DNA of 59,184 nt, the filler included. It is 5 parts of 5 records of this genome, joined end to end, with 100 filler letters (N's around TTAATTAATTAA, not from the genome) between each part and the next. Parts side by side here need not be neighbours in the genome. Positions count along the whole stretch, not along the records: positions 17,215 to 29,812 come from SRR31156797_7346; 4 more parts are not named here. One strand, written 5' to 3'. Under the pieces are notes generated by a model. That model ran no database searches, was not told where the DNA came from, and was given only the letters and a program-made list of their open reading frames with translations. This document shows positions 11,705 through 28,020 of the stretch, piece by piece (the stretch's first letter is position 1; each line of letters starts with the position of its first letter). The translations under genes were made by a program, and so were the position numbers.

Positions 11705-14700
11705 ATGTACAAAATAACAGAACACCCTATTATTGATATAGAACAGGGAAAAGAAGTCTATTTTACCTATAATGGTCAAAAGATTAAGGCCGAAGAAGGA
11801 AAAACCATTGCTGCAGCTTTGCACCAGGCAGGTTTTCCTGTACATAGTCATAGTTTAACCAATCGTAATCGCAGTCTTGAGTGCGGAATTGGTAAATGTG
11901 GTGCCTGTGAAATGCTCGTGGATGGTCAAATTAGAAGAATTTGTATCACAAAAGTAGATAACGTAACTGAAGTTAAAGAAGTACCACAAGATTATGAGCC
12001 AGCAGTAACTAAATACAAAAATCAAGATGCTGTTGAAATATATAAAACTACAGTTGCTATTGTTGGTGCTGGTCCTGCCGGTTTAGCGGCCAGAGCGCTT
12101 CTAAATGAGCATAACATAGATAATTTAGTAATTGATAATAATGACACAATAGGTGGCCAGTTTACCATGCAGACCCACCAGTTTTTCTTCTTTGAAAATG
12201 AGAAAAAATTTGGTGGTATGCGGGGATTTGATATTCCAAAAGAATTGACTGTTGACAATGATGAAGGTATTTTGCTAAACTCTACTGTTTGGGATTTACT
12301 TGATGGAAAACGTCTGGCAATTAAAAACATTAAAACAGATAAAATTTATTATGTAGATGCTGAGCATTTGGTTATAGCTACCGGTGCGGTGCCATTTATG
12401 CCATCATTTGAAAATGATGATTTACCCGGTGTATATACAGCTGCTGTTGTTCAGAAAATGATGAATAATGAGCTTACACTTTTAGGTAAAAATATATTAA
12501 CCGTAGGTGCAGGTAATATTGGGTATTTAACCTCCTATCAGGCAGTTCAGGCAGGTGCAAATGTTAAGGCTATTGTGGAAGCACAACCTCGCGAAGGTGG
12601 TTTTCCTGTGCAGGCAAACAGGGTGCGTCGCCTGGGTATCCCTATTTATTTATCTCATATCTTAGTAAAAGCTATACCTAATGAGGACCATACAGGTATT
12701 ATTGGAGCTGTAGTTGCTGAAGCAGAGAACTTTAAACCCGTTCCAGGTACAGAACGCGTAATTGAAGGTATTGATACCATTAATATTTGCACCGGACTAG
12801 TACCAGATGATGCAATATTGCGCAAAGGTAAAGAGGTTTTTGGAAGAAATGTATATGGTGCCGGAGATGCTATACGAATTGGCGAAGGAACCAGTGCAGT
12901 GCTACGTGGAAAGCAAGTCGCATATGAAATACTAGAAGAATTAGGTGCTCATTATAACTATGACGATTACTTAAAGTTATCTAAAGAATACATTGATTCA
13001 CAGCAACATCCTATTCAAATTATCGATGAACCAGAGCTTCCTACCAGGGAAAGAATGGACAAACCATTCGTTATTGCAGACTGTACTTATGGGTTTGCAT
13101 GTAACCCTTGTGCATTCTCTTGTCCACACGATGCCATTACAAAATCATCATCAAGTACAGTGCCTGTAATTGATTTTGATAAATGTGTAGGCTGTATGCA
13201 GTGCGTTACATTATGTCCTGGATTGGCTATTTTTGGTTATAATTTTAAAAAAGACTGGCTTTTCTTACCTGTTGAATACGATGTAGAAGAAGGATGTGAT
13301 GTTATTTTAGTTAATAATGATGGACAAAAGGTTGGTACAGGAGTACTAGAAAAGATCGTTAAAAAGCCAAACAAAACAAACCTGGCCCGTGTTAAAGCCA
13401 ATGATATACATGGCGAAGATTTAGTTAATGCAAGAGGTTTTATAGTTGCAGATAACTACCCTGAGGGTGTGGAATTTAATCCGTCCTCAAATAATATTGA
13501 ATCAAAAGAATTTATTTGTCATTGTGATGATGTAACGATGGACGAAGTAATGAAAGTTATTGGCGATCGTAAATTCATTTCAGTAGATGAAATTAAACAT
13601 ACCACGCGCCTTGGAATGGGTGCTTGCCGTGGGAAACGTTGCATCAAGCGTTTAAAAACCGCATTAGCAGGTTCTGGTATACAAGTGGTCGGAGAAGCTA
13701 CTCCTCGCGGACCAATGTCGAATCAGGTTAGTATGGGTGAAGTTTACCCAAATGATGTACATGAAAAAGTAATCCCAAATTTAAACGGACAAAAAATTGA
13801 AACTATTGAAACCAATGTATTGGTAGCAGGTGGTGGAATTGGTGGTAGTGCCCTATTCCGTTATTTTGCTGAAGCTGGTGAAAATCCAATCTTGATTAAC
13901 TATGAAAGAGGTTCTTCATGGCGAAATATTGCAGGTGGACGTCCTGTATTTAGCGTGCCAGAATTAGCTGATATTGCAGCTAATAACCGTGTAATTTTCC
14001 AGGAGCTACAGCAAATTTCAGAGATTCACATGACAGACATCAATTATGTGACCCTGGCTCACGATAAGGCGACGTATGACGCATTGGAAGCTTCAAAAGC
14101 ATGGAGCGATGCCTTTATGATTGAGCCAAAAGATTTCCCAAAATATATTGCTCCAGGATTTAGCACAAGTAACGATAAATATATGTCGGCACTGGTAACC
14201 AAAGACTGCTGGCAGGCAACACCGGGATTGGTAATTGATTTAATCCGTAAAATTGGTATTCAAAATGGTGGTCAAATTCATGAAGATGCCAAGCTCATTG
14301 ACCTTGAAAAGACAGATAAAGGCTATATTGCTTTAGTTAAGTCTCACGAAGGAAAATACATCAAATATAAATGTAAACATTTCGTAAATGCATTGGGTGG
14401 AAATGCAGGTGAATTTGCTGACAAATTAAACATCGATACAGGTTTATTCCCTGTAAAGCATCAGGCATTTATAACACGCCGATTGCCTAATTTAGGTGTA
14501 AATAACCAACCATTAAACATGGTGATTGATCGAAGAAAATATAAAGGTTTTACTGCAGTTTATGGACAGCAATTGGCTGAAACAGGTCAAATAATTGGTT
14601 GCGCCTCTCCTGCTATTGAGCCTTTAGAAACAGATAAAAACCTTAAAATCAATGACAAAAACTTCTTCGAAATTGTATCAGAAGTATTTGTAGATTGGTT

Positions 14701-14935
14701 GCCTGAGCTTTCCTCTGTTGGATTCCAGGCTGTGTGGTCAGGTTATTATGTAGAACCACGCATGATTATTGATCCTGCAAATGGATTATTTGTTGGATTA
14801 CGAGGACAAGGATTTATGTTGGGAATGTATCTGGCTAAATTATATGTAGATGCCATAACAGGTAAATCTACACCAGATTATCTTGAGCGACTATCAATAA
14901 ATGGAGACGGTTTACAAGAGAAAGCATTCAAATAA
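11705..14935 (+). CDS. Fused multi-domain oxidoreductase: [2Fe-2S] + FAD/NAD(P) reductase + 2x[4Fe-4S] + BFD-like [2Fe-2S] + DAO-family FAD domain (sarcosine oxidase / proline dehydrogenase / HcnABC-like)
   Basis: CGIGKCGAC..C, VGAGPAG, VGAGNIG, CNPCAFSCP and CVGCMQCVTLCP, ICHC..TRLGMGACRGKRC, VAGGGIGG, GLRGQGFMLG. Start taken at MYKITEHP. Confidence 0.85.
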   Translation: MYKITEHPIIDIEQGKEVYFTYNGQKIKAEEGKTIAAALHQAGFPVHSHSLTNRNRSLECGIGKCGACEMLVDGQIRRICITKVDNVTEVKEVPQDYEPAVTKYKNQDAVEIYKTTVAIVGAGPAGLAARALLNEHNIDNLVIDNNDTIGGQFTMQTHQFFFFENEKKFGGMRGFDIPKELTVDNDEGILLNSTVWDLLDGKRLAIKNIKTDKIYYVDAEHLVIATGAVPFMPSFENDDLPGVYTAAVVQKMMNNELTLLGKNILTVGAGNIGYLTSYQAVQAGANVKAIVEAQPREGGFPVQANRVRRLGIPIYLSHILVKAIPNEDHTGIIGAVVAEAENFKPVPGTERVIEGIDTINICTGLVPDDAILRKGKEVFGRNVYGAGDAIRIGEGTSAVLRGKQVAYEILEELGAHYNYDDYLKLSKEYIDSQQHPIQIIDEPELPTRERMDKPFVIADCTYGFACNPCAFSCPHDAITKSSSSTVPVIDFDKCVGCMQCVTLCPGLAIFGYNFKKDWLFLPVEYDVEEGCDVILVNNDGQKVGTGVLEKIVKKPNKTNLARVKANDIHGEDLVNARGFIVADNYPEGVEFNPSSNNIESKEFICHCDDVTMDEVMKVIGDRKFISVDEIKHTTRLGMGACRGKRCIKRLKTALAGSGIQVVGEATPRGPMSNQVSMGEVYPNDVHEKVIPNLNGQKIETIETNVLVAGGGIGGSALFRYFAEAGENPILINYERGSSWRNIAGGRPVFSVPELADIAANNRVIFQELQQISEIHMTDINYVTLAHDKATYDALEASKAWSDAFMIEPKDFPKYIAPGFSTSNDKYMSALVTKDCWQATPGLVIDLIRKIGIQNGGQIHEDAKLIDLEKTDKGYIALVKSHEGKYIKYKCKHFVNALGGNAGEFADKLNIDTGLFPVKHQAFITRRLPNLGVNNQPLNMVIDRRKYKGFTAVYGQQLAETGQIIGCASPAIEPLETDKNLKINDKNFFEIVSEVFVDWLPELSSVGFQAVWSGYYVEPRMIIDPANGLFVGLRGQGFMLGMYLAKLYVDAITGKSTPDYLERLSINGDGLQEKAFK

Positions 14936-14960
14936 AATAAATCAGAAATTTAGTTAGCGC

Positions 14961-14990
14961 AAAAACGCTGCTCGAAAGGGCAGCGTTTTT
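14961..14990. terminator. Bidirectional intrinsic terminator
   Basis: AAAAACGCTGC-TCGAAAGG-GCAGCGTTTTT between convergent genes. Confidence 0.85.
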
Positions 14991-15924
14991 ATTTTTTATT
15001 TTCGATCCAAATGTGTTTATACTTCTTACTTAAAAATGTCCATGCCACTATCCTACTTTTTTTATTACCCCTATTCTGCTCAACTACTTTATAATCTGCT
15101 ACCTGAACCCCACGTAAGGCTTGAATAATTTTGGGCATACTCTTTTCAGAAGATACAAGGCTAGAAAACCAAAATACATTTGATGCAAACTGTTTACTTT
15201 CACGAATCAATTTTGTTATAAAAGCCAACTCTCCTCCTTTGTACCAAAGCTCCTTTCCTATACCTCCAAAATTGAAATTGGTTTTAGTGTCTCTATTGCC
15301 TGAAAGATTTCTACTTTTTCGAGTGTTCGCTTTGATGGCTTCTTCCTCAGAGGTAAAAAATGGAGGATTACACATGGTACAATCAATTAAATCATTGAGT
15401 TGAATTATATCCTTCAGTATATTATCCGGATTTGACTGTTTTCTGATTTGTATTTTGTTCTCAAGCCTTCTATTCTGTGTAATTATCCATTCAATATTTT
15501 GAATCGCTATTTGATCTGTTTCCGAGGCGATAAAACGCCAATTATATTCACTAATTCCAATGATTGGATAAATACAATTAGCTCCTGCTCCTATGTCCAA
15601 ACAAGCTATTTTAGAATTCTTAAGGTTTATATCATAACTTTCCTTTAATAAATCAGCCACAGCATGTACATAATCAGCTCTTCCAGGTACAGGAGGGCAA
15701 AGATAACCTTCCGGGATATTCCATTCATTCAGGCCATAATCTAATAGTAAAACAGCACGGTTTAGTTCTTTAACAGCACCTGAGTTACCAAAATCAATAG
15801 TCAATCGGTTTGACTTACCCGTATGGACATATTGATTTAATTGAGGATTAACTTCAATGAGTTTCTCAAAATTGTAGGTACCCTGATGTTTATTGTTTGA
15901 ATGAAACCTCTGAAGATTAGCCAT
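14989..15924 (-). CDS. rlmF: 23S rRNA m6A1618 methyltransferase
   Basis: YLCPPVPGRADY, LDIGAGANCIYP, MCNPPF, NFGG..ELW..GGELAF, SRIVAWTF. Confidence 0.93.
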   Translation of the reverse strand: MANLQRFHSNNKHQGTYNFEKLIEVNPQLNQYVHTGKSNRLTIDFGNSGAVKELNRAVLLLDYGLNEWNIPEGYLCPPVPGRADYVHAVADLLKESYDINLKNSKIACLDIGAGANCIYPIIGISEYNWRFIASETDQIAIQNIEWIITQNRRLENKIQIRKQSNPDNILKDIIQLNDLIDCTMCNPPFFTSEEEAIKANTRKSRNLSGNRDTKTNFNFGGIGKELWYKGGELAFITKLIRESKQFASNVFWFSSLVSSEKSMPKIIQALRGVQVADYKVVEQNRGNKKSRIVAWTFLSKKYKHIWIENKK

Positions 15925-15927
15925 TTA

Positions 15928-16392
15928 TCAGTCTTTTCTGTATTTCAATTGCATACCTTTCAGAAAATTACGCAAATATTGATCCTGACATTCACGGTAT
16001 TTGGCATGATCAGTTTTTCTGAAAAAGGCACTCAACTCTGGCTTACTCACTTTTAGACCAGCTTTTTCAAATATACTGATCATATCTTCATCCTTCAGAT
16101 TGAGAGCAATTTTTAATTTCCTCAAGATTATATTATTCGTTAAACGTCTTTCTGGTATAGGCTTAAGTCCTTCTTTTTCGCCTCGATTAAAAGCAATTAA
16201 ACCATTTAAAAATGCTGCTAAGTATTGATCAGTCATAGGTTTCATTTGTTCATCATCATCTTTTTTAAGCCAATCACTAACTTGAGAACGGCTTACAACA
16301 AAATCTCCCATTGAGAATAATTCTATCATGCGTTCATCGTAAAAATCGAAAGTATACCTTATTCTTCTTAAAATATCGTTATTACTTAGCAT
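15928..16392 (-). CDS. DUF1456 (YehS-like) protein
   Basis: NNDILRRIRY, FLNGLI, TNNIILRKLKIALNL, ELSAFFRK, YRECQDQYLRNFL. Confidence 0.9.
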   Translation of the reverse strand: MLSNNDILRRIRYTFDFYDERMIELFSMGDFVVSRSQVSDWLKKDDDEQMKPMTDQYLAAFLNGLIAFNRGEKEGLKPIPERRLTNNIILRKLKIALNLKDEDMISIFEKAGLKVSKPELSAFFRKTDHAKYRECQDQYLRNFLKGMQLKYRKD

Positions 16393-16413
16393 AACATTAA
16401 AATTAAATTTCTA

Positions 16414-16421
16414 CAAAAATA
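16414..16421 (-). promoter_or_regulatory. Bacteroidota -7 promoter element for the DUF1456-rlmF genes
   Basis: TATTTTTG on the minus strand, 21 nt upstream of the ATG at 16392. Confidence 0.55.
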
Positions 16422-16560
16422 CGATTTCATTTCTATGATTAGCTTCATCTATATTTAAAATACACTTCAGTCTACCAAAAACCACATATAGACGTGCAAA
16501 TAATTAGTTAATAAATTATTAAATAGTTATCCTGATTGTGTTTTTTAAACTTTTTTGTTA

Positions 16561-16568
16561 TATTTTTG
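16561..16568 (+). promoter_or_regulatory. Bacteroidota -7 promoter element with no downstream CDS
   Basis: TATTTTTG on +, with a TTG at 16536-16538 near the expected -33 position. Confidence 0.5.
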
Positions 16569-16571
16569 TAA

Positions 16572-16649
16572 ACGGCATCCGGAATTTGAAATTTTATTAA
16601 ATCCGTGGGGTGAAGTAAGCAGTACAAATTAGTATTGCTTGCTTTTTTT
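16572..16649 (+). ncRNA. Candidate ~78-nt small RNA of unknown family
   Basis: Lies between a + strand promoter element and a + strand terminator. It is a GC-richer patch that folds as CATC/CGGA-ATTTGA...TTAAAT-CCG/GGGTG and has no ORF. Confidence 0.4.
16613..16649 (+). terminator. Intrinsic terminator, U-tail on the + strand
   Basis: AAGTAAGCAGTAC-AAATTA-GTATTGCTTGCTT followed by a T run. Confidence 0.7.
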
Positions 16650-17114
16650 ATTTTCTGGAGTCCTCAACCATTTTCTGAAGGTGCTGAACTTCTGTCTGAC
16701 TTAGATAACGCCATTTACCAACAGGAACATCCAATTGCACATTCATAATTCTGACTCGTTTTAATTTTACTACTTTATATCCAAAATATTCACTCATTCT
16801 GCGAATTTGTCTATTTAATCCCTGTGTAAGCACAATCTTAAATTTGAATTTAGAAATCTTTTTAACATGGCATTTTCTGGTAACAGTATCCAATATGGGA
16901 ACACCATTACTCATACCTGACAAAAACTCATCAGTAATAGGCTTATTTACAGTTACTTCATATTCCTTTTCGTGAAAATTTCCGGCCCGTAGAATTTTGT
17001 TTACTATATCTCCATCATCAGTTAGAAAAATTAAACCCTCACTGGGCTTATCCAGTCTGCCAATGGGAAAAATTCTACTCGGGAAATTGATAAAATCAAT
17101 AATATTATCTTTTT
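16648..17114 (-). CDS. rluF: 23S rRNA pseudouridine synthase, RluF/RluB family (5' end truncated by contig end)
   Basis: The frame extends beyond the ORF call: [43 protein letters not shown] ... [12 protein letters not shown]. Confidence 0.85.
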
Positions 17115-17214
17115 NNNNNNNNNNNNNNNNNNNNNNNNNNNNNNNNNNNNNNNNNNNNTTAATTAATTAANNNNNNNNNNNNNNNNNNNNNNNNNNNNNN
17201 NNNNNNNNNNNNNN
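17115..17214. other. Artificial contig spacer
   Basis: N-run + TTAATTAATTAA (stops in all six frames) + N-run. Confidence 0.99.
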
Positions 17215-17892
17215 AATCTCTTTTAAAAGGATCTCTTTTTCATCTAAGGATTTTTTTAGTTTTTGATTGATAGATGTTATTTTGTTTTTATAAATGTGTC
17301 TTTGAGTAGTATCTCTTCCAAATGCACATACATAATCTTTCCCTGCGTGGGTAAATCCATGACCAGTGACTTCTATATCTATGATTGTTCCATCTTTTCT
17401 TTTTTGAGTAGTTTCTAAGGACCAATCTTTAGAATTAAATATTTCATTGATAATATCTATAGCTCCTTGTCTATCAAAGTTATAATCCATCTTTTCTAAA
17501 GGTTGTCCTAAAAGCTCCTCTTTTTTATACCCCAACATATTACAAGTTGCATCATTTACATAGACAAATTTAGCATCAAGTGTAAACCAATAAATAGCAT
17601 CAACAGAGTTATCTAATGCAAACTCATAGGGCACTAATCTCTCTTTATCATTATCTTTTAATTCAGTATATGAGTTGTCCAAACGCTCATAAATAATTAC
17701 AAGAAATAATATGATCCCCGTATAACTTAAAACAATAAGCATTATAGTTAGTGGGGTAAGGTTTGTAAGTTCATTACATTCATTATATATAGTTACTAGG
17801 TTATTGATGAATATAACCCCTAAACCTAATAAGAGGATATATATAGTTACTAATTTGATTCTAAGTGTTTTTTTATGATCTCTATTTTTCAA
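17215..17892 (-). CDS. Membrane PAS sensor histidine kinase, HisKA_2/HWE type (3' truncated)
   Basis: Two TM helices, a PAS domain (YVNDATCNMLGY..KRKDGT) and SLDEKEILLKEI, which in this family precedes HHRVKNN. TTG start. Confidence 0.75.
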
Positions 17893-17952
17893 AAACTATC
17901 CCATTGTAACATTTTAAATATTTTAACAGAAAATAAATTTTTTTTTTAAGAA

Positions 17953-17985
17953 TGCGAAAGTTTTGCGACTTTTTTCATTTAAGAT
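17953..17985 (+). promoter_or_regulatory. Putative dmpK promoter: TGCGA direct repeat (11-bp period) plus -10-like TAAGAT
   Basis: TGCGA at 17953 and 17964, TAAGAT at 17980-17985, SD AAGGAG before the ATG at 18016. Confidence 0.5.
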
Positions 17986-18015
17986 TCATTTGTCTAAGTT
18001 CAAAAAGGAGTTTTT

Positions 18016-18246
18016 ATGTATGAACTAATGCCAAATGAAAAAAAATTCGTGCAAATTATTGAGATTAAAGATAATGGATTTGTAGAGTTTTATTTTGCTG
18101 TTGGTGAGGCAGAGATGAACGTTGAGTTACTTCTGCCATACAGAGCCTTTATTGAGTTTTGCGGGAACAATAGAGTCTCTTTTGTCACTAAAGAGCAAGA
18201 GCAAGCGTTGAAAGTCAGTAATGAGATTTGGAAAAATGGACTTTAA
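18016..18246 (+). CDS. dmpK: Phenol hydroxylase assembly protein P0
   Basis: GFVEFYFAVGEAEMNVELLLPYRAFIEFC..NRV; first gene of the operon; good SD. Confidence 0.9.
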   Translation: MYELMPNEKKFVQIIEIKDNGFVEFYFAVGEAEMNVELLLPYRAFIEFCGNNRVSFVTKEQEQALKVSNEIWKNGL

Positions 18247-18263
18247 AATATGAAGGAGAAAAT

Positions 18264-19256
18264 ATGGAATTAAACATTGCAAATATTGAGATTGAGCCAA
18301 AAAGACACACTTTTGCTCATATAGCTAGAAGGTTTGGTGAGGATAGACCAGCATCAAGATATGAAGAAGCTGTTTATGATGCACAAGCAACAGACAATTT
18401 TCACTACAGACCACTTTGGGAGCCAGAGTTTGAAATATATGATGTAGGAAGAACAGCTATCAAGATGGATGATTGGTATAAGCTTCTTGATCCTAGAAAG
18501 TTTCATTATATGACATATGTTTCTACAAGAGCAAAAGAGAATAGTGCAAACCAACAAAGTTTTGATTTTGTTGAAAAAAATGGATTGGTCAATAAAATAA
18601 GTGATACCATGAAAGAAAAAATCTATAAATATCTTGCTCCATTAAGACATTATGAATATGGTGCAAACCTAAATAATTTGTCTATCGTATCAAGAGGGTA
18701 TGGAACAGCCTTAAACTCTGGGGCATTATTTTATGCAACAGATAGTTTAGGTATGGCACAACATGTTACAAAAACAATATTAGCAATTTCAAGTAATGAT
18801 ACTACTGTATTGGATGGTGCAAAAGAGGCTTGGATGAGTGATGCAGATTGGCAACCTCTACGAGAGCTCATGGAAAATACAATGGTTATAAAAGATCCTA
18901 TTGAGATTTTAATAGCACAAAATGTTGCTCTTGATGGTATGGTAATCCCTTTACTTGTAAAGGAGTTCTCAGCTGAACTTGCAAAAAGTGGAGAATATAC
19001 TGTTCAAATGTTAGTTGATTTTATTTCAACTTGGCAGGAAAGTACTACGAAATGGCTGGATGCACTAGTAAAAGTGATGGCAGATGAATCTCAAGAGAAT
19101 AAAGATCTGTTATCTCAATGGGCAAAAGAGTATATAGAAAAAGCAAAAACGGCACTGAGTCCTTTATCAACATTTACCAACAATGAAGATCTATTATCAG
19201 AAATAGAACAAGCTTTAGTAAATAGACTCAATAAAACTGGTCTAAACATTAATTAA
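18264..19256 (+). CDS. dmpL: Phenol hydroxylase beta subunit P1
   Basis: PKRHTFAHIARRFG..RPASRYEEA, NFHYRPLWEP, DPR, LAPLRHYEYGANLNN. Start at MELNI after SD AAGGAG. Confidence 0.95.
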   Translation: MELNIANIEIEPKRHTFAHIARRFGEDRPASRYEEAVYDAQATDNFHYRPLWEPEFEIYDVGRTAIKMDDWYKLLDPRKFHYMTYVSTRAKENSANQQSFDFVEKNGLVNKISDTMKEKIYKYLAPLRHYEYGANLNNLSIVSRGYGTALNSGALFYATDSLGMAQHVTKTILAISSNDTTVLDGAKEAWMSDADWQPLRELMENTMVIKDPIEILIAQNVALDGMVIPLLVKEFSAELAKSGEYTVQMLVDFISTWQESTTKWLDALVKVMADESQENKDLLSQWAKEYIEKAKTALSPLSTFTNNEDLLSEIEQALVNRLNKTGLNIN

Positions 19257-19265
19257 GGAGAGAAT

Positions 19266-19541
19266 ATGTCAAAAAGTATTGCGTTATTATGTGTTCAGGC
19301 TACTGACGAGGGAAGAACTATCGCTGAGGCTATCAAGGTAGATAATGAGGGTATAAAAATCACAAATAAGCCTGCCATGATCCAAATAGAAAGAGAAGGG
19401 GAGATCGTAATAAAAGCAGATACCGTTTCTGAAGCTTTAGGAAGAGAGTGGGAAACTGAAGAGTTACAGCTTATTTTGATCTCAACAGGTGGTCAAATAG
19501 ATGAAGATGAAGATCAATTTGTAGTTTATTGGAATAGTTAA
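19266..19541 (+). CDS. dmpM: Phenol hydroxylase regulatory (effector) protein P2, MmoB/DmpM family
   Basis: R.IAEAI..DN, PAMIQIE, LGREW, LISTGGQIDEDED; operon position. Confidence 0.93.
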   Translation: MSKSIALLCVQATDEGRTIAEAIKVDNEGIKITNKPAMIQIEREGEIVIKADTVSEALGREWETEELQLILISTGGQIDEDEDQFVVYWNS

Positions 19542-19554
19542 AAAGGAGAAGATT

Positions 19555-21063
19555 ATGAGTAGTGCAGAACCAAGAAAAAAAAGACTAAGTAAAAAAGAGT
19601 CATATAAATATATGACAAGATTAGGTTGGGATACAACTTATAAAAGTGAAGAAGAAACTCATCCAAGCTTAAATATGGAAGGTATCAAAATACATGATTG
19701 GGACGCATGGGAAGATCCTTTTAGAATGACTATGGATTCATACTGGAAACTTCAAGCAGAAAAGGATAAAAAGCTTTACTCTATCATAGATGCTTTTGCA
19801 CAAAATAATGCTCAAAAGAATATCTCTGATGCAAGATATGTAAATGCTTTAAAACTCTTTTTAACAGGGGTAACACCTTTAGAACATAAAGTGGTAAATG
19901 GATTTGCAAATGCAGCAAGAGCTTTTAAAGGTGAAGGTGCAACCATCGCATGTCAAATGCAAGCTATAGATGAGCTTAGACACTATCAAACACAAGTACA
20001 TACAATAAGCCATTATAATAAATATTTTGATGGGTTTAGTGAGTATAGAACCCTTCATGATAGAATCTGGTATCTTTCTGTTCCAAAATCTTTTGGTGAT
20101 GATGCGAGTACAGCTGGACCATTTGAGTTTATGGTTGCTATTGGGTTTTCATTTGAGTTTGTTCTTACAAGTTTACTTTTTGTTCCATTTATGAGTGGGG
20201 CTGCGTATAACGGTGATATGGCAACGGTTACATTTGGATTTTCAGCGCAAAGTGATGAGTCTAGACATATGACACTCGGTCTTCAAGCTGTTAAGTTTAT
20301 GCTTGAACAAGATGCTGATAATGTACCTATTGTTCAAGAGTGGATGGATAAATGGCTATGGAGAGGGTATAGAATGCTTGGTCTTGTAGCTATGATGATG
20401 GATTATATGTTACCAAACTCTCCAACCTCTTGGGGTGAAGCTGTTGAGCTTTATATTGAGCAAAATGGTATGGCTTTATATAAAGATTTAGAAAAGTATG
20501 GTATCAAACCACCTATGGATCTCATTGAAGTGATGATTGCTGAAAAAGATCATCTCTCTCATCAAGTTTGGAATATTTTTTATAACCATTCAAATGCAGC
20601 AGCATTTCATACTTGGCTCCCTGATGAAAAAAAGATGGACTGGTTGAGTGAAAAATATCCAAATAGTTTTGATAAACTTTATAGACCTTTATGGACGTAC
20701 CATGCAAATAAAGAGGAGAGATTTTATTCTGAAACTTTACCTCTACTTTGTCAAACATGTCAGATTCCACTTGGATTTACCGATGTTGTAAATGGTAATC
20801 CTGAAGTTTATACCCATGTAACAACTCAATTTAATGGAGAAAATTTCCATTTTTGTTCAGACGGATGTAAACACATTTTTGAGCGAGAACCAGAGAAGTA
20901 TGTGCAATCATGGCTACCTCCTCATCAAATTTTCCAAGGAAATTGTGGTGGAGCTACACTCCCAGAAGTAGTTAAATGGTATACAATAGAAGATGGTGTG
21001 GATAATTTAGACTATGTGGGTTCACCAGATGAAGCTATGTGGAACAAACTAAAAAATATATAA
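19555..21063 (+). CDS. dmpN: Phenol hydroxylase alpha (diiron) subunit P3
   Basis: IHDWDAWEDPFR, two DExRH motifs (IDELRH, SDESRH), WYLSVPKSF, and C-terminal CQTC..FCSDGC with EPEKY. Confidence 0.97.
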   Translation: MSSAEPRKKRLSKKESYKYMTRLGWDTTYKSEEETHPSLNMEGIKIHDWDAWEDPFRMTMDSYWKLQAEKDKKLYSIIDAFAQNNAQKNISDARYVNALKLFLTGVTPLEHKVVNGFANAARAFKGEGATIACQMQAIDELRHYQTQVHTISHYNKYFDGFSEYRTLHDRIWYLSVPKSFGDDASTAGPFEFMVAIGFSFEFVLTSLLFVPFMSGAAYNGDMATVTFGFSAQSDESRHMTLGLQAVKFMLEQDADNVPIVQEWMDKWLWRGYRMLGLVAMMMDYMLPNSPTSWGEAVELYIEQNGMALYKDLEKYGIKPPMDLIEVMIAEKDHLSHQVWNIFYNHSNAAAFHTWLPDEKKMDWLSEKYPNSFDKLYRPLWTYHANKEERFYSETLPLLCQTCQIPLGFTDVVNGNPEVYTHVTTQFNGENFHFCSDGCKHIFEREPEKYVQSWLPPHQIFQGNCGGATLPEVVKWYTIEDGVDNLDYVGSPDEAMWNKLKNI

Positions 21064-21070
21064 AGGAAAA

Positions 21071-21433
21071 ATGATGGCAGTTAATTCAATAGGGGAATAC
21101 CCATTAGTTATGAAAGACAGTATTGATAGGTTTCATGGAAATCAGTTAGTGTTTATTTATTGGTATGGGCATAGAGTTGTGAGCTCTCCAAGAGCATTTC
21201 CATTACCTCCTGATATGCCTTTTGGAGCAATTTTATCAGATATTATACCTCTTACATATAAGGTTGAGCCAGATTTTGAAAAACTTGATTTTGAAACTAC
21301 TGAAGTTATTTGGGAAGTGGATGGAAAAGTGATCACTCCAGATCCTAGTAAAAGTTTAAAAGAGAATGGAATAGGGCATAAATCTTATATTCAATTTACC
21401 ACACCAACTTTAACAGGAAAGATTGGAGCATAG
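21071..21433 (+). CDS. dmpO: Phenol hydroxylase gamma subunit P4
   Basis: MAVNSIGEY, FHGNQL, FPLPPDMPFGA, PDPSKSLKENGIGHKS. Start may be the second ATG at 21074. Confidence 0.93.
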   Translation: MMAVNSIGEYPLVMKDSIDRFHGNQLVFIYWYGHRVVSSPRAFPLPPDMPFGAILSDIIPLTYKVEPDFEKLDFETTEVIWEVDGKVITPDPSKSLKENGIGHKSYIQFTTPTLTGKIGA

Positions 21434-21434
21434 T

Positions 21435-22493
21435 ATGGCATGCAAATTAGAGATTGAACCTACAGGTGATATGGTAGATGTAGAAGAGGGGCAAACTTTA
21501 CTAGATGCTGCCTTACGGCAAGGGGTGTATCTCCCCCATGCTTGTAATCATGGACTATGTGGTACTTGCAAAGTTGAAGTTTTAGAGGGTGAAGTTGATC
21601 TAGGAGATGCTTCTCCTTTTGCTTTAATGGATGTGGAAAGGGAAGATGGATATTGTCTTGCTTGTACTGCTACTGCTTTAGAGGATGTAGCTATTGAAGC
21701 AGATATAGATGAAGATCCAGATGCTAGAAGTATCCCTGTAAAAGATTTTGAGGGAACAGTAGTTGAGTTTAGGATGCTTACTCCTAGAATACTTGGAGTT
21801 TGGATAGAACTTGATGAACAGATAGATTTTCAAGCTGGTCAGTATATCAATCTTCATGTACCAGGGTTTGATGAACCAAGAGCTTTTTCTTTAGCAAACC
21901 AACCAAGTACAGGGAAAGTGATAGAGCTAAATATAGGGATTATCCCTGATGGTGAAGTTACCCCTTGGATCCATGAAAATATAAAAGTTGGAGATAGATA
22001 TAAAGTCTCAGGTCCATTTGGAAGATTTTTTGTCAAAAGAAGTGCAAAGCTTCCTATGATATTCTTTGCAGGTGGTTCAGGACTTTCAAGTCCAAAGTCT
22101 ATGATCTTAGATGAATTGGAAAATGGATGTGTAGAACCTATTACCCTTTTTCATGGAGCTAGAGATGTTCAAGAGCTTTATTATGCTGAGATGTTTAAAG
22201 AGCTAGAGAGTAAATATGAAAACTTTACATACATACCTGTTTTATCAGATAATGAAGATGAGAGTTGGCAAGGGGAAGTTGGTTTTACCAATGATGTGGC
22301 AAAAAAACTTTATGATGGAAAATTTAGTGGTAATAAAGCCTATCTATGTGGACCACCAATGATGAGTGAAGCGTGTATCACCACTTTAATGCAAGGAAGA
22401 CTTTTTGAAAAAGATATCCATACTGAAAAGTTTTTTTCAAAAGCTGATTTGAATAAGGAAAATACAAAAAGTCCACTTTTTAAATCTTTATGA
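21435..22493 (+). CDS. dmpP: Phenol hydroxylase NADH reductase P5 ([2Fe-2S] + FAD/NAD)
   Basis: PHACNHGLCGTCK..CLAC, RAFSLAN, AGGSGLSSPKSM, AYLCGPPMM, EKFF, SPLFKSL. Confidence 0.95.
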   Translation: MACKLEIEPTGDMVDVEEGQTLLDAALRQGVYLPHACNHGLCGTCKVEVLEGEVDLGDASPFALMDVEREDGYCLACTATALEDVAIEADIDEDPDARSIPVKDFEGTVVEFRMLTPRILGVWIELDEQIDFQAGQYINLHVPGFDEPRAFSLANQPSTGKVIELNIGIIPDGEVTPWIHENIKVGDRYKVSGPFGRFFVKRSAKLPMIFFAGGSGLSSPKSMILDELENGCVEPITLFHGARDVQELYYAEMFKELESKYENFTYIPVLSDNEDESWQGEVGFTNDVAKKLYDGKFSGNKAYLCGPPMMSEACITTLMQGRLFEKDIHTEKFFSKADLNKENTKSPLFKSL

Positions 22494-22495
22494 TA

Positions 22496-22525
22496 TAGAG
22501 TATGGTAATTGGACACCATACTCTA
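22496..22525 (+). terminator. Stem-loop directly after dmpP (terminator or mRNA-stabilising hairpin)
   Basis: Perfect 11-bp stem TAGAGTATGGT / ACCATACTCTA with an 8-nt loop; no clear U-tail. Confidence 0.55.
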
Positions 22526-22634
22526 GTATAAAACTCCCTTTATCTATAATAAAAAGTATTATTTTATTTAGGCTACAGTAATATTTTAGTAAAATAATAG
22601 TAAATTCATTAGATATATTATCTAAAGGTATATT

Positions 22635-23030
22635 ATGGAACAACTCATTTATTGTAGTACTGCAAAACCTGATACAAGTTTTGAAATGGTTAAAAGTATC
22701 TTAGATGTTGCAAAGAATAAAAATAAAGAGTTTGGTTTGAGTGGGATGCTTATTTTTAATGGTACTTATTTTTTGCAATGTATTGAAGGACCAAAAGAAC
22801 ATATACAAACTCTTTACTCAAACATTCTTAGAGACACAAGACATCATAATATTAAAAAAATAGACCAAATAGAGATAAAAAAAAGAGATTTTGCTCAATG
22901 GTCTATGGGGTATTACAATTCTAGAAAACAGATTAATCAATTTATTCAGCATGATAATTACGATCCTTATTCTATAAAGTTTGAAGAGGCTAAAAAACTG
23001 TTGATCAAATTTTCTAAAGGTATAGTTTGA
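22635..23030 (+). CDS. Stand-alone BLUF blue-light photoreceptor
   Basis: LIYCS (Tyr), NKEFGLSGML (Asn), FLQCIEG (Gln), RDTRH, FAQWSM (Trp/Met); the photochemically required residues are present. Confidence 0.93.
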   Translation: MEQLIYCSTAKPDTSFEMVKSILDVAKNKNKEFGLSGMLIFNGTYFLQCIEGPKEHIQTLYSNILRDTRHHNIKKIDQIEIKKRDFAQWSMGYYNSRKQINQFIQHDNYDPYSIKFEEAKKLLIKFSKGIV

Positions 23031-23067
23031 AAAAAACAGTAAAAAATATTATGAAGAAGGTATTTTA

Positions 23068-23649
23068 GTGAGAGGGATTTTATTTAAAGCATATACAGAG
23101 TTTATTAAAGATCGTTTTGATTCAAAGATTTTAGATCAAGTTCTTCAAAATGGAGATTATCCAAATAGTGGTGGTTTTTCTGCTTTGGGAAACTACCATA
23201 CCTCATATATGACCTCTTTAATAGATAATAGTGCAGTTTTTTTTAAGTGTTCAAAAAATGCTATTATGAGACAGTTTGGAAGATTTACTTATGGGTATCT
23301 TCATAAAAGATTTAAAAAAATGTATGCAGATCAAAGTGAGATATTGAATCTCAATAATCCATTTGATTTTTTAGAAAATCTCAATACCTTACACTTTGCA
23401 GAGTTAAAAAAGCTTTACCCAAATGCTCATTTTCCTAAATTTGAGATAGAAAGAGTTGGGGATGAACATATTATTTTAGAGTATTCTAGCTTTAGAGATA
23501 TTCCTTATTTAACCTATGGATTGATTGAGGGGTGTTTAGAGTATTATAAAGTGGTAGGATCAGTAACTATGATGAAGCTAGATAAGGTAAGACAGATTGA
23601 TGCTCAAGCCTATCCAGTCTATAGATTTGAGGTGAAAAAAGATGGATAA
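23068..23649 (+). CDS. H-NOX (heme NO/O2-binding) protein
   Basis: MRGILF N-terminus, proximal His in LHFAELKKLYP, conserved Pro in FPKF, YxSxR (YSSFR), GLIEG. GTG start. Confidence 0.9.
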   Translation: MRGILFKAYTEFIKDRFDSKILDQVLQNGDYPNSGGFSALGNYHTSYMTSLIDNSAVFFKCSKNAIMRQFGRFTYGYLHKRFKKMYADQSEILNLNNPFDFLENLNTLHFAELKKLYPNAHFPKFEIERVGDEHIILEYSSFRDIPYLTYGLIEGCLEYYKVVGSVTMMKLDKVRQIDAQAYPVYRFEVKKDG

Positions 23650-24997
23650 TAGAGCCTTAAATGAGGAGGTAGAACTTCTTAAAAGAGAATTGATACGTGA
23701 ACAGCTTGCCCATTTAGAAACTGAAGAAATAGCTGAAAAAGTTACTTTAGAACTCTATAATACAAATACACAGCTCCAAACTATTTTTGATATTACAAAA
23801 GATGGGATAGCTATTGTTGATCTTGAAACAAATTTTTTATTTTTTAATAAAGCATATCTTTTAATGACAGGTTTTACATCTGAAGAACTTTTGACAAAAA
23901 GCTGTGCAGGTCTTTCTACAAAAGAGGATTTACAAAGATCACAAGATGTAGTAGAAGAGGTGATCCAAAAAGGTTTTGTTGAAAACTTTGAAAAAACATG
24001 TATCGCAAAAGATAATAGAAGATTGTATGTAAATATGTCTTTTGCACTTATGCCTGATAAAAAACGGATCTTAGTTGCTACAAAAGATATCTCAGAGCAA
24101 AAAAGAAAAGAGAAAGTTATCCAAGATTATGTGCAGCTTATTGATATGAGTGTGATCACTTCTTCAACTGATCTTGAAGGGAATATTACATATGTATCAG
24201 ATGCATTTTGTACTATAAGTGGGTATTCAAAAGAGGAATTAATAGGACAAAACCATAGAATCGTTAGACATCCTGATATGGATCAAGAGGTATATAGGGA
24301 ACTATGGAACACTATAAAACTTGATATGGTATGGGTAGGAGAGCTTAAAAACAAAAAAAAAGATGGAAGCTCGTATTGGGTGCAAGCTTCAGTTTCTCCT
24401 ACATATGATGAATATGGTAAAAAAATTGGTTATACCTCAGTTCGTCAAGATATCACAGATAAAAAGATCTTAGAGCAGATCTCTATCACAGATCCTTTAA
24501 CAAATATTTATAATAGAAGATACTTTGATGAAGTATTTTCAAATGTATACAATAATGCAAAGAGAAATAATCAATATGAGTTTTTTCTTATTTTAGATAT
24601 TGATCATTTTAAACAATACAATGATTATTATGGACACCATATGGGTGATGAGACTTTAAAAAAAGTGGCAAGTTGTTTACAAAAACCTTTAAAAAGAAAA
24701 GAAGATTATTGTTTTAGACTTGGAGGGGAAGAGTTTGGTGTACTCTATCAGGCTGAATCAAAAGAGCAAGGTCTAAAGTATGCAGAAACTATTAGAGAGT
24801 CTATAGAAAGCTTACAAATTGCACATAAATATAATAGTGCTAGTGCTTATGTCACTATCTCTTTGGGGTTGGTATGTATAAATAGTACAAATGATCAAAT
24901 AGATAGCAAAACAAAAATCTATCAACAAGCTGATCAATTATTGTATGTGGCTAAAAACTCTGGTAGAAATCAAGTATGTTTTATGATAAATGAATAA
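23642..24997 (+). CDS. PAS-PAS-GGDEF diguanylate cyclase
   Basis: N-terminal coiled coil, two PAS domains, TDPLT..NRR, LDIDHFKQYNDYYGH, RxxD I-site (RKED), RLGGEEF, AKNSGRN. Overlaps the H-NOX gene by 8 nt. Confidence 0.95.
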   Translation: MDNRALNEEVELLKRELIREQLAHLETEEIAEKVTLELYNTNTQLQTIFDITKDGIAIVDLETNFLFFNKAYLLMTGFTSEELLTKSCAGLSTKEDLQRSQDVVEEVIQKGFVENFEKTCIAKDNRRLYVNMSFALMPDKKRILVATKDISEQKRKEKVIQDYVQLIDMSVITSSTDLEGNITYVSDAFCTISGYSKEELIGQNHRIVRHPDMDQEVYRELWNTIKLDMVWVGELKNKKKDGSSYWVQASVSPTYDEYGKKIGYTSVRQDITDKKILEQISITDPLTNIYNRRYFDEVFSNVYNNAKRNNQYEFFLILDIDHFKQYNDYYGHHMGDETLKKVASCLQKPLKRKEDYCFRLGGEEFGVLYQAESKEQGLKYAETIRESIESLQIAHKYNSASAYVTISLGLVCINSTNDQIDSKTKIYQQADQLLYVAKNSGRNQVCFMINE

Positions 24998-25011
24998 GTT
25001 CTCTCTACTGT

Positions 25012-26883
25012 TTAATATTTTTTAAGTTTGATTGTAAACTTTGCTCCTTGTACTGTATTACTAGCGAGAATAGTTCCATTTAACTTTGTTTCAATGATCA
25101 GTTTAGACATATAAAGCCCAAGACCACTTCCCTCTTTACGGTTTTTTGTGGTAAAATAGATATCAAATATTTTGGATAAAAGTTCCTTTTTTATCCCTCC
25201 TGCATTATCTTTAATAGTCACTATCACATGCTCTTTTGTTTCATTTATTTTGATAGTGATCTCTCCATTTAATACTTCCCTTGCAACAATCGCATCTTCA
25301 GCATTAGCAATGATATTTAAAATAACTTGGGAAAACTCATTTGGATAGCCAGTAAACTTTACTAGTTTCTCTTTATCTTTGAAGTTTATTTTAATATGTT
25401 TATAAACTAAAGAGGCTTTGATGATATTTAAGGCATTGTCTATTTGTTCATTGACAATAAAGGTGACTTTTTGGTTTTTAGGTTCAAAAAAGTTTCTAAA
25501 ATCATCTATAGTTACAGACATGTATTTTATAAGCTGATTTCCCGCTTCTAGCTTTTTACTTAAGTACTCTTCTGTGAGTTCATCAAATGAATAAGCTGAT
25601 TCTAGGTTCATAAAAATTCCACCAAGTTTTGAAAGGGGTTGTCTCCATTGATGGGCAATATGACCTATCATTTCCCCCATAGTCGCAAGTTTTGCTTGCT
25701 GCATTAAAAGATACTCACTCTCCATCCGTTTTTTGATCTCTTTATCAATGATCTCTTGGAGTTGTTGATTTTTATTTTCATAGGTGGTTACATCTTTTAA
25801 AATAAGTTTAATATAACTGCTTGAGAGATTTTTTGAAATAGTTCCTGAAACCTCATAGGTAAGATCTTTGATTCTCACGGTTACATTGCTAATAGTACCA
25901 ATAGATTCAATATGGTTTTTGATCGTTTCCCAATCATTTTGAGAAAGGATACTGGTGATCTTTGTATCGATGTAGGTTTCACCAAAATGTTTAATTGCTT
26001 CATCATTGAGCCACGATACGATCGCATTGGTATCTGTATGATACACCTCAATGATCGGTTCTGGTAAAAAGTTCATGATCTCTTGGGCATGTTTGATCTT
26101 ATTTTGTAAAACCTTTGTATAGTTTCCTTTTATATGTTGGAGGATATCTCTATTGGTAAGTAAAGAGATAACTTTACCTGATAGGTCTGTCACTACTATC
26201 CGTCTGATTTGCTGTAGTTGCATAATCTCAATAGCAGTGTGTACATCTGTATCTAAGGGGATTGTAATAAGAGGTGATGCCATATGAGCTGAGATAGAAC
26301 TTTGCATATCAACTTCATTATAAATAGCCTGAATAATATCTTTTTCTGTCACTATCCCAATATGTTGATCTTTTTTTGAGATGATCACAGAACCTATTTT
26401 ATTCATTTTCATGATACTTAGAGTTTTTTGTATAGTGGTTGTATCTTCAACACATAAAAGCTGTTTGTTTGTATTGATAAGGTTTTGAATCTTTAGATCA
26501 ACTTTATAAAAATCAGATTCTAGGTGTCTAATGAGATCCTCTTGAAGTACGATTCCTTTATATTGATCATTTTCATCTTTTAATAAAAGTCGTTTGATAT
26601 TATTTTGATTGAGTATCTCAAAAGCAAACTCTACGGGTCTGCTCTCATCTGTTTCTATTAAGTTCCTATTTGCAATAGTTATTGCTTTTTCATTTAAAGA
26701 GATATTTTTATCAAGCGCGTTTATAATATCACTCTCTGTGATAATACCTATCGCTTTTGTGGTATGAAGTACAACTACACAGCCCGATTTGTTTTCATTG
26801 ATAACTCCTAAGGCTTCTTTAATAGAACTAGAGTCTGTTATCGTAATTGGTTTGCTTGTTTTAATATCTTTTAAAGTAAACAT
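25012..26883 (-). CDS. Cytoplasmic histidine kinase with two CBS pairs and a PAS-like segment
   Basis: GIITESDI, GIVLQEDL, GIVTEKDI and SLLTNRDI (four CBS repeats); IAHQWRQPL H-box, NIIANA, DNAGGI, FTTK, GSGLGL; no TM helix. Confidence 0.9.
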   Translation of the reverse strand: MFTLKDIKTSKPITITDSSSIKEALGVINENKSGCVVVLHTTKAIGIITESDIINALDKNISLNEKAITIANRNLIETDESRPVEFAFEILNQNNIKRLLLKDENDQYKGIVLQEDLIRHLESDFYKVDLKIQNLINTNKQLLCVEDTTTIQKTLSIMKMNKIGSVIISKKDQHIGIVTEKDIIQAIYNEVDMQSSISAHMASPLITIPLDTDVHTAIEIMQLQQIRRIVVTDLSGKVISLLTNRDILQHIKGNYTKVLQNKIKHAQEIMNFLPEPIIEVYHTDTNAIVSWLNDEAIKHFGETYIDTKITSILSQNDWETIKNHIESIGTISNVTVRIKDLTYEVSGTISKNLSSSYIKLILKDVTTYENKNQQLQEIIDKEIKKRMESEYLLMQQAKLATMGEMIGHIAHQWRQPLSKLGGIFMNLESAYSFDELTEEYLSKKLEAGNQLIKYMSVTIDDFRNFFEPKNQKVTFIVNEQIDNALNIIKASLVYKHIKINFKDKEKLVKFTGYPNEFSQVILNIIANAEDAIVAREVLNGEITIKINETKEHVIVTIKDNAGGIKKELLSKIFDIYFTTKNRKEGSGLGLYMSKLIIETKLNGTILASNTVQGAKFTIKLKKY

Positions 26884-27587
26884 TATGAAACAATATTAAG
26901 TTTATAACCCATTCCACTAATGTTTTGTAGAATTTTAGGATGAGTTTTTTGTCGCAGATTTCTTATTTGACTTCGAATAGCATCAGGAGTCATTACTGAT
27001 TCATACCAGATCTCACTTTCTAACATCTCATAAGTGACAATAGAGTTACTTTTTGAGATAAAAAATTTTAAAAGTTCAAGCTCTTTTCTTCGTAGATCGA
27101 TCGGTTCATTTTCACAATACAAAACATTATGTTTTGTATGGAATTTAAATCCTTCTCCTAGATCAATAAAGCTTAACTCTATATTTTCATCTTCAAGCTC
27201 TTCAAAAACTTTTTCTAAAACTTGAAAAAGATCATCACTTGTTACAGGTTTTACAAGGTATCTACTTATTTGAAGCTCAATAGCATCTAACATAAACTCT
27301 TTATTTGTATACGCAGTTGAGATTACTATTTTTATATCTTTATCTTTTTGACGAATACTTTTAATCATCTGTATTCCATTGAGTTTAGGAAGATTGATAT
27401 CGACGATCATTAAATGTGGTTTGTGCTTTTTATAAAGATCTATCCCTGTTTCAGCATCTTTAGCACAATGTATTTGGGTTGCAAATCGTTCAAAAAACTC
27501 TTTAATATAGTTTCTGATATCATCATCATCTTCAACATAGACAAGTTTTAAATTCGCTAATTTATTTTTTAAATTATTATTTGTCAC
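26883..27587 (-). CDS. OmpR-family response regulator
   Basis: YVEDD, VDINLP, STAY, YLVKP; winged helix ELELL..IW..IRSQIRNLRQK..GMGY. Likely GTG start at 27587 rather than 27677. Stop overlaps the kinase start (TAATG). Confidence 0.9.
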   Translation of the reverse strand: MTNNNLKNKLANLKLVYVEDDDDIRNYIKEFFERFATQIHCAKDAETGIDLYKKHKPHLMIVDINLPKLNGIQMIKSIRQKDKDIKIVISTAYTNKEFMLDAIELQISRYLVKPVTSDDLFQVLEKVFEELEDENIELSFIDLGEGFKFHTKHNVLYCENEPIDLRRKELELLKFFISKSNSIVTYEMLESEIWYESVMTPDAIRSQIRNLRQKTHPKILQNISGMGYKLNIVS

Positions 27588-27647
27588 AACTACTCGCTTT
27601 TTTACCATCATATGGATTATAATAGTCTTGAAATAATACCATGAAAC

Positions 27648-27689
27648 AATGGAATAAAAATGGAACTTCATTTCCATTTTTATTCCATT
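27648..27689. repeat. Perfect 18-bp inverted repeat whose arms are themselves 11-bp-period direct repeats
   Basis: AATGGAATAAAAATGGAA-cttcat-TTCCATTTTTATTCCATT between divergent genes. Confidence 0.9.
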
Positions 27690-27741
27690 ATAAATAGTTA
27701 CAATTACAATTATTATAGCATATAAAAAGTAAAGGAAAAAG

Positions 27742-27957: not shown

Positions 27958-27984
27958 AGTTTATTATCTAAGATAGCAGAAAAT

Positions 27985-28014
27985 AATTGACTTTAAGTCA
28001 ATTGATTGTAAAAT
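27985..28014 (+). promoter_or_regulatory. sigma70-like promoter overlapped by a 19-bp palindrome
   Basis: AATTGACTT-T-AAGTCAATT at 27985-28003; TTGACT (27987) -16 nt- TAAAAT (28009). Confidence 0.55.
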
Positions 28015-28020
28015 AAATTC

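Follow-up and report, generated by a model that had tools for sequence, protein, structure and literature searches.

A phenol hydroxylase operon of the DmpKLMNOP type on an Arcobacteraceae-like contig and a candidate two-component regulon around it

Two pseudomonad systems serve as references for the multicomponent phenol hydroxylases. Pseudomonas sp. CF600 has the operon dmpKLMNOP-QBCDEFGHI together with the activator DmpR, and Pseudomonas sp. (stutzeri) OX1, a gammaproteobacterium, has the PHK-L-M-N-O-P system with solved structures (PDB 2INN, 2INP and 3U52). In group 2 of the soluble diiron monooxygenases (SDIMOs), the gene order closes with the alpha subunit, the gamma subunit and the reductase. 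Another mode of control is that of TodS/TodT and TmoS/TmoT, where a PAS-containing kinase and a response regulator, rather than a sigma-54 activator, control an aromatic oxygenase operon. The group 2 order begins with the accessory protein, the beta-hydroxylase and the coupling protein, according to the available text of a 2025 SDIMO review and phylogeny (PMC11825192). Among the Campylobacterota, Arcobacter sp. CAB was shown experimentally in 2013 to oxidise catechol by meta-cleavage with a full gene set (PMC3656443, in the text available), an oxygenase-dependent pathway that is the step after phenol hydroxylase. Here we analyse a window of 59,184 nucleotides (the whole stretch of DNA, in five pieces designated A-E), whose second piece, B (SRR31156797_7346), carries a dmpKLMNOP operon at 18016-22493.

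The operon consists of six consecutive open reading frames (ORFs) on the plus strand, without internal stops and in the canonical K-L-M-N-O-P order shared with both pseudomonad systems. Their Pfam matches (Table 1) are far beyond chance and give the order accessory, beta, coupling, alpha, gamma and reductase. A preliminary description of the window had reported six intact genes in canonical order with strong Shine-Dalgarno sites; the ORFs and Pfam matches bear out the first point, AAGGAG-type sites ahead of dmpK, dmpL, dmpM and dmpN the second, and the observation as a whole is confirmed. The mechanical ORF starts of dmpL (TTG 18228) and dmpP (TTG 21423) were set aside for the ATG codons at 18264 and 21435, which are most likely the true starts; the corrected lengths equal those that mechanical calling gives for dmpL and dmpP in one related locus (L001).

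Comparison with solved structures places the enzyme with the phenol hydroxylases. DmpN matches the OX1 alpha chain PHN (phN) at 728 bits, as against at most 132 bits for the toluene monooxygenase alpha subunits (TmoA/TouA) and at most 49 bits for that of soluble methane monooxygenase (MmoX), and is thus closer on bit scores to phenol hydroxylases than to toluene, alkene or methane monooxygenases. OX1 also provides the best solved match for DmpL (phL, 271 bits), DmpM (phM, 72 bits, followed by 1HQI, a “phenol hydroxylase P2 protein”, at 68 bits) and DmpO, which matched just two solved sequences, with phO (80 bits) alone among solved structures. The best solved matches of DmpP are FNR-type reductases. 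The DmpN product has a diiron centre and a YHS/four-cysteine site at its C-terminus: E108, E138, H141, E199, E233 and H236 (OX1 numbering), which make up two E...ExxH motifs, are all identical in the alignment with 2INN_A, and the four cysteines of the CxxC...CxxxC pattern of the OX1 chain are kept as well. These residues we take, from the OX1 structure literature, to be the metal ligands. No Rieske-type component was found among the six ORFs, and the reductase is of the plant-type [2Fe-2S], FAD and NAD kind. By every sequence-level measure the operon is therefore that of a canonical group 2 SDIMO and not a particularly divergent one; the divergence claimed in the preliminary description is overstated, given the score against OX1 PHN, the conserved ligands and the 59-68% DmpN identity to relatives outside the Campylobacterota (see below).

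By homology, DmpP would pass electrons from NAD(P)H via FAD and its [2Fe-2S] cluster to the (DmpL-DmpN-DmpO)2 hydroxylase, where the carboxylate-bridged diiron centre of DmpN would activate O2 and ortho-hydroxylate phenol, and probably cresols, to catechols; DmpM would act as the coupling protein and DmpK would aid iron loading. Judged from its sequence, the operon almost certainly encodes a functioning hydroxylase of phenol and cresols from an Arcobacteraceae-like bacterium, and we are highly confident in the fuller statement that a functional enzyme of the DmpKLMNOP/PH-OX1 type lies on a 12.6-kb contig of such a Campylobacterota organism.

Table 1. Positions of the operon, its upstream region, and the pieces and joins of the window
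Feature	Position	Strand	Details
dmpK, accessory/assembly protein, 76 aa	18016-18246	+	PF06099 3.5e-19; AAAGGAG Shine-Dalgarno
dmpL, hydroxylase beta subunit, 330 aa	18264-19256	+	PF02332 1.5e-59
dmpM, cofactor-less regulatory (coupling) protein, 91 aa	19266-19541	+	PF02406 2.9e-23
dmpN, hydroxylase alpha subunit, 502 aa	19555-21063	+	PF02332 4.7e-67; YHS PF04945 2.3e-10
dmpO, hydroxylase gamma subunit, 120 aa	21071-21433	+	PF04663 2.3e-19
dmpP, NAD(P)H-dependent reductase, 352 aa	21435-22493	+	Fer2 3.8e-19 ([2Fe-2S]), FAD_binding_6 (FAD), NAD_binding_1 (NAD)
PAS histidine kinase, N-terminal part, 226 aa	17215-17892	-	PAS Pfam; divergent from dmpK
Direct repeat TGCGA-N6-TGCGA, candidate operator	17953-17968	+	kinase/dmpK intergenic
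Piece A	1-17114		
Artificial linker N44-TTAATTAATTAA-N44	17115-17214		left end of piece B
Piece B	17215-29812		12,598 bp; carries the operon
Artificial linker N44-TTAATTAATTAA-N44	29813-29912		right end of piece B; interrupts SBP_bac_3 sensor kinase
Piece C	29913-35178		
Artificial linker N44-TTAATTAATTAA-N44	35179-35278		between pieces C and D
Piece D	35279-52174		
Artificial linker N44-TTAATTAATTAA-N44	52175-52274		between pieces D and E
Piece E	52275-59184		

The DmpN protein search recovered 1401 proteins at E <= 0.001 among 5317 candidates, with 120 listed, and a scan of genome contigs recovered 590 relatives, the best 80 of which underlie all locus counts given here. Among the matches listed, the closest are two proteins at 84% identity; Halarcobacter mediterraneus (82%), Poseidonibacter ostreae (81%), H. 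anaerophilus (80%), Aliarcobacter lanthieri (78%) and a Sulfurimonas sp. (72%) are followed by alphaproteobacterial, gammaproteobacterial and Sphingobacterium proteins at 61-66% (Sphingobacterium 66%). By title, 21 of the best 80 loci (L001-L014 and L019-L025) are from Campylobacterota, with 70-83% DmpN identity, and the remaining 59 show 59-68%. Members occur in Aliarcobacter, Halarcobacter, Poseidonibacter, Arcobacter, Sulfurospirillum and Sulfurimonas; the search of Campylobacterota genomes proposed in the preliminary description finds the lineage widespread, with 21 species genomes of this phylum among the best 80 loci. A DmpN tree with 63 rows (one for the window, 47 from the 80 loci, with 33 left out, and 15 listed proteins) has the Campylobacterota on one side of a branch with a support of 98 in the Shimodaira-Hasegawa-like approximate likelihood-ratio test (SH-aLRT), divided into two subclades. 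The window protein nests in an Arcobacteraceae clade, within sets of 16 rows (SH-aLRT 95) and 18 rows (SH-aLRT 100) that include Halarcobacter, Aliarcobacter and Poseidonibacter. Two further rows, P0036 and P0022, a Sphingobacterium DmpN and another protein, lie near the base of the Campylobacterota side and not with the Proteobacteria.

The informative genes outside the operon on piece B point to the same phylum. For the CBS-domain kinase at 25012-26883, which lies outside the operon, all six organism-named relatives among the 120 matches listed are Campylobacterota, and all 120 have an HQWRQP H-box; the IAHQWRQ kinase motif that the preliminary description had called typical of Arcobacter/Sulfurimonas-type genomes is real, at 25653 (-) and 29797 (+), with no further copy in the window. 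Across 231 aligned positions, the PAS kinase fragment upstream of dmpK shares 73% identity with residues 1-235 of a 430-aa kinase of an Arcobacteraceae locus (L005). The shared AT-rich composition that had been claimed for the operon and its neighbours also holds: third-codon-position G+C (GC3) is 0.20-0.35 in the dmp genes and 0.20-0.27 in the other piece-B genes. Across the lineage, dmpN GC3 is 0.13-0.26 in the 21 Campylobacterota loci versus 0.35-0.99 in the 59 others; the window genes, with a GC3 of about 0.2, likewise differ from OX1 in being AT-rich. The DmpN relatives and tree, the relatives of the CBS-domain kinase and the GC3 values thus mark piece B as Campylobacterota DNA in which the operon is compositionally at home, and the span of genera fits long residence. 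The core inference of the preliminary description is right in substance, in that the lineage is widespread and compositionally settled in an Arcobacteraceae-like group.

What follows dmpP differs from locus to locus. In 12 of the 21 Campylobacterota loci the operon is followed by genes for a ferredoxin, catechol 2,3-dioxygenase, an HbpS-like protein, hydroxymuconic semialdehyde (HMS) dehydrogenase, a hydratase, acetaldehyde dehydrogenase, an aldolase and a decarboxylase; catechol 2,3-dioxygenase is in the flank of 47 of the 59 other loci. This arrangement recalls that of CF600, from which the Campylobacterota clusters differ in the HbpS-like gene after the dioxygenase. Elsewhere a Liv-type ABC transporter follows the operon (7/21: L001, at 13916-20814, L003, L013, L014, L019, L021 and L023), and 8/21 have a TauE permease; L004 stops 360 bp after dmpN and is uninformative for downstream content. 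The window fits neither pattern, with BLUF, H-NOX and PAS-GGDEF genes in their place.

This variation bears on an alternative that we consider unlikely but worth weighing, namely a group 2 diiron monooxygenase whose physiological substrate is other than phenol: toluene or benzene (cf. toluene 2-monooxygenase), an alkylphenol such as the p-cresol of tyrosine fermentation, or another small aromatic. Group 2 enzymes accept phenol, cresols, halogenated aromatics, toluene, tetrahydrofuran, benzene and xylene, according to the available text of PMC11825192, piece B has no adjacent catechol genes, and the related loci with a Liv-type transporter or TauE permease have these instead of the meta pathway. 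The top-scoring solved relative is nevertheless a phenol hydroxylase, not a toluene monooxygenase, and the related loci that join the operon to a ferredoxin, catechol 2,3-dioxygenase and the lower meta pathway have the classical phenol/cresol layout. Phenol or cresol hydroxylation is thus the reading that we retain.

The genes directly after dmpP (22635-24997) encode a BLUF blue-light sensor, an H-NOX haem sensor and a PAS-PAS-GGDEF diguanylate cyclase, an arrangement found beside the operon in none of the 21 related loci. The H-NOX and PAS-PAS-GGDEF genes share 8 bp, suggestive of a cyclic di-GMP module that responds to gas or light. In L013, on a complete Halarcobacter metagenome-assembled chromosome, the operon is closely followed by a fragment of a DUF772 transposase and a gene for an HNH endonuclease (14004-17351), the sole mobile-element trace among the four loci that we annotated.

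Upstream of the operon, the Campylobacterota loci depart from both pseudomonad systems. We surveyed the context by Pfam annotation of 52 proteins from four loci and a tblastn census of the loci. A PAS-HisKA_2 kinase gene divergent from dmpK is present in 19 of the 21 Campylobacterota loci and in 0 of the 59 others, and the same counts hold for an OmpR-type response regulator beside the operon; a short-chain dehydrogenase/reductase (SDR) gene is present in 16/21 (the others were not counted). Conversely, the sigma-54 AAA+ activator domain was found in 0/21 Campylobacterota loci versus 45/59 others, which sets the former apart from OX1 and from CF600 with its DmpR-type activator. No sigma-54-dependent NtrC-family activator of the DmpR type adjoins the operon in the window, which has the PAS kinase fragment there. 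The fragment is membrane-anchored and the contig ends just ahead of the HisKA_2 H-box; its full-length homologues consist of a PAS and a HisKA_2 domain in about 430-440 aa. The resemblance of this pair to TodS/TodT and TmoS/TmoT is in concept only, the Campylobacterota kinase having a single PAS domain and its partner being of the OmpR type rather than the NarL/FixJ type.

The intergenic region between kinase and dmpK contains a direct repeat of the form TGCGA-N6-NGCGA. The window has two matches to this pattern versus 0.08 expected, a number reached in 1 of 100 shuffles, the second match lying inside a piece-D gene. Among the relatives, the repeat lies upstream of dmpK in all 21 Campylobacterota loci and occurs anywhere in only 4 of the 59 others. 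Three loci (L022, L009 and L005) have a second copy 64-73 bp ahead of the first gene of the meta-cleavage cluster, which encodes the ferredoxin, and L001 has further copies ahead of the Liv-type ABC transporter and neighbouring genes. From this co-occurrence, which is what is observed, we infer a two-component-controlled regulon: expression would probably be driven by the divergent PAS-HisKA_2 kinase and the OmpR-type regulator, not by a sigma-54/DmpR activator, and the regulator would act at the repeat. The wider proposal, of a long-resident Arcobacteraceae phenol/catechol regulon in which this pair has replaced the sigma-54/DmpR switch and acts on the repeat before hydroxylase operon, meta-cleavage operon and ABC transporter alike, is tentative and in our estimate falls somewhat short of even odds. 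Were it true, microaerophilic bacteria of sulfide zones, sewage and manure could consume phenolics made by anaerobes at oxic-anoxic interfaces. A lineage-specific two-component system with a sharply conserved repeat is in any case a cheap and testable lead, and it is the one feature of the locus that we single out as such.

Several observations on the kinases and repeats of related loci stand apart from this. With SH-aLRT values of 99 and 98, the upstream kinase of L005 (7014-8306) falls together with the window kinase and “clade I” kinases, and the DmpN of the same locus (9989-11509) falls in a different subclade from the one its kinase would suggest, a hint that regulator and structural genes have recombined among Arcobacteraceae. 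The flanks of L001, L002, L011, L019 and L021 contain a second PAS-HisKA_2 kinase gene, a paralogue of the first, and in L001 a second OmpR-type regulator comes after it. Extra copies of the repeat occur in the region of the second kinase and transporter in L001 and L019; the Liv-type uptake system may be under the same control as the operon.

A number of points weigh against an enzyme of phenol breakdown under two-component control. In the literature searched there were no activity data for Campylobacterota members. On piece B, the 7.3 kb downstream of the operon have no catechol-cleavage or lower meta-pathway genes of the kind that follow it in CF600, though these may lie elsewhere in the genome. 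The contig ends at the left, so that the catalytic half of the kinase and the regulator are missing; given both gaps, phenol mineralisation cannot be asserted. What ties the repeat to the regulator is their co-occurrence, and two of the 21 loci (L020 and L025) keep the repeat and lack the kinase/regulator pair. NCBIfam gave no above-cut-off match for any hydroxylase subunit, a result judged uninformative rather than negative. Scans of 17215-23100 found 27 consensus promoters versus 27.3 expected and three terminators versus 2.4 expected; both are at chance level, and hence we claim neither a sigma-70 promoter nor an operon terminator. Lastly, the DmpN tree comes from a quick LG+G4 search with SH-aLRT as its sole support measure.

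The preliminary description had treated the window as a single contig, which is not borne out. Four identical linkers, each of 44 N, TTAATTAATTAA and 44 N, divide it into five pieces of mixed origin; six-frame-stop spacers of this sort are used for stringing contigs together. The window is therefore a concatenation, and physical linkage to the operon is limited to piece B, whose left join is some 800 bp away from dmpK. Each of the joins cuts genes short: the PAS kinase at 17215, the SBP_bac_3 kinase at 29812 (its translation continues into X), a carboxyltransferase and AtpA, which face each other across the third linker as fragments (N-terminal in the case of AtpA), and an aminotransferase, a fragment at 52318 by the last. 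Context inferences across linkers are accordingly invalid, and the whole 59 kb is not one Campylobacterota contig, since pieces A and D look Bacteroidota-like. The window is most simply seen as contigs of more than one organism strung together artificially, a mixed bin of which piece B is the Campylobacterota contig.

The composition of the pieces bears on a further alternative, in which piece B would share the Bacteroidota-like host of pieces A and D and be a 12.6-kb block acquired from an Arcobacteraceae donor by cross-phylum transfer. The pieces were delivered as one sequence and their overall G+C contents are similar (A 0.334, B 0.317, D 0.300); moreover, Bacteroidota can hold related operons, as the Sphingobacterium DmpN (66%) near the base of the Campylobacterota side indicates. 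The linkers, however, leave no physical link between the pieces, each informative piece-B gene points to Campylobacterota, non-operon genes included, and the window DmpN lies inside the Arcobacteraceae rather than beside Sphingobacterium. Tetranucleotide profiles correlate less well between B and A (0.53) or D (0.61) than between A and D (0.85) or, on average, between B and 18 Campylobacterota loci (0.79), and the B-C value is 0.21; such signatures are no more than suggestive, given the small size of the pieces and the correlation among AT-rich genomes in general. On this evidence cross-phylum transfer is very improbable. A recent import of the operon from Gamma- or Betaproteobacteria, or a piece chimeric at the operon edges, is hardly credible even though the characterised systems are proteobacterial and the operon G+C (0.351) slightly exceeds that of the rest of piece B (0.299): the GC3 of the dmp genes fits that of their neighbours, with the excess in constrained codon positions, the 21 Campylobacterota loci hold their own side of the tree, the Campylobacterota-specific upstream kinase and promoter repeat are continuous with the operon, and Pfam gave no transposase or integrase family on piece B, in agreement with the absence of a mobile element reported earlier.

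With piece B taken as Campylobacterota DNA, the operon is real, intact and ordinary, a routine addition to a lineage already present in many Arcobacter relatives. The closest of these, the public Arcobacteraceae homologues, share with it the clade, the upstream kinase and the promoter repeat, and differ in their downstream neighbours and in DmpN, at most 84% identical among the matches listed. Public Halarcobacter genomes already label the gene “phenol 2-monooxygenase”. An accession of Arcobacter anaerophilus DSM 24636 stands under Group 2 in Table S3 of PMC11825192, the main text of which has neither “Arcobacter” nor “Campylobacter” nor “Epsilon”. The main text of PMC3656443 lacks “monooxygenase” and has “phenol” in its reference list only, and the available text of PMC6249378, PMC13159726 and PMC13603553 attributes dmp genes to other taxa. 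Within the available text of the literature searched we found no paper with a Campylobacterota phenol hydroxylase as its subject, the Table S3 accession being the sole trace. The new lineage implied by the preliminary description is thus already on record, as public annotation, in the Group 2 list and, for catechol meta-cleavage, in print; of its interpretation, the Campylobacterota host and the resident lineage stand, and the single contig, the divergence and the newness do not. The significance is correspondingly modest, as the genes are annotated in many public genomes and Arcobacter meta-cleavage of catechol is published. The operon brings a textbook enzyme of aerobic aromatic degradation to a group known chiefly for microaerophily and sulfur oxidation, and since blooms of Arcobacteraceae occur in sewage, manure and oil-field waters and at oxic-anoxic interfaces, all with phenol and cresols, they may be overlooked phenol sinks.

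RlmF had been considered as a flank marker of the operon and was dropped because it sits on piece A, a separate piece, and is uninformative about the host of the operon. Its best matches are at 72, 62 and 60% identity, with organism-named relatives at 50% or less; of the 19 organism-named matches, 16 are of Bacteroidota lineage, three of Gammaproteobacteria or Legionella and none of Campylobacterota. For piece D, the nearest Atlas clusters of a PorZ-like type IX secretion protein and of a long AtpB (scores 0.99 and 0.97) are commonest in Bacteroidota, which we regard as leads rather than proofs of its origin. The idea that the whole window is Bacteroidota, prompted by the PorZ and Y_Y_Y/Reg_prop matches, was rejected for piece B in view of the Campylobacterota relatives of DmpN and the kinase and of the linkers. 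An Rfam scan of the window gave no match, and the stretch at 29.9-35.2 kb (43-48% G+C), considered as an rRNA operon, proved to be the protein-coding piece C. This piece, 5.3 kb at 47% G+C versus about 30% elsewhere in the window, encodes an enoyl-CoA hydratase, a sigma-54 response regulator, a PAS histidine kinase and a truncated carboxyltransferase, and is probably from a third organism.

Piece D has an atpB-(E)-F-H-A operon interrupted within atpA, a bactofilin, a class III adenylate cyclase, the PorZ-like protein at 42602-45001 and a 915-aa beta-propeller protein. Piece A encodes two giant sensor phosphatases of 1248 and 1151 aa (3729-7475 and 8257-11712), with Reg_prop/Y_Y_Y propeller domains and a C-terminal SpoIIE/PP2C domain, and between them in this arrangement a 210-aa ORF without a family match. 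Adjoining them, at 11576-14935, is a 1119-aa fusion oxidoreductase that combines Fer2_4, Pyr_redox_2, 4Fe-4S, BFD-like [2Fe-2S] and DAO domains, and whose mechanically called start runs into the end of the adjacent phosphatase gene.

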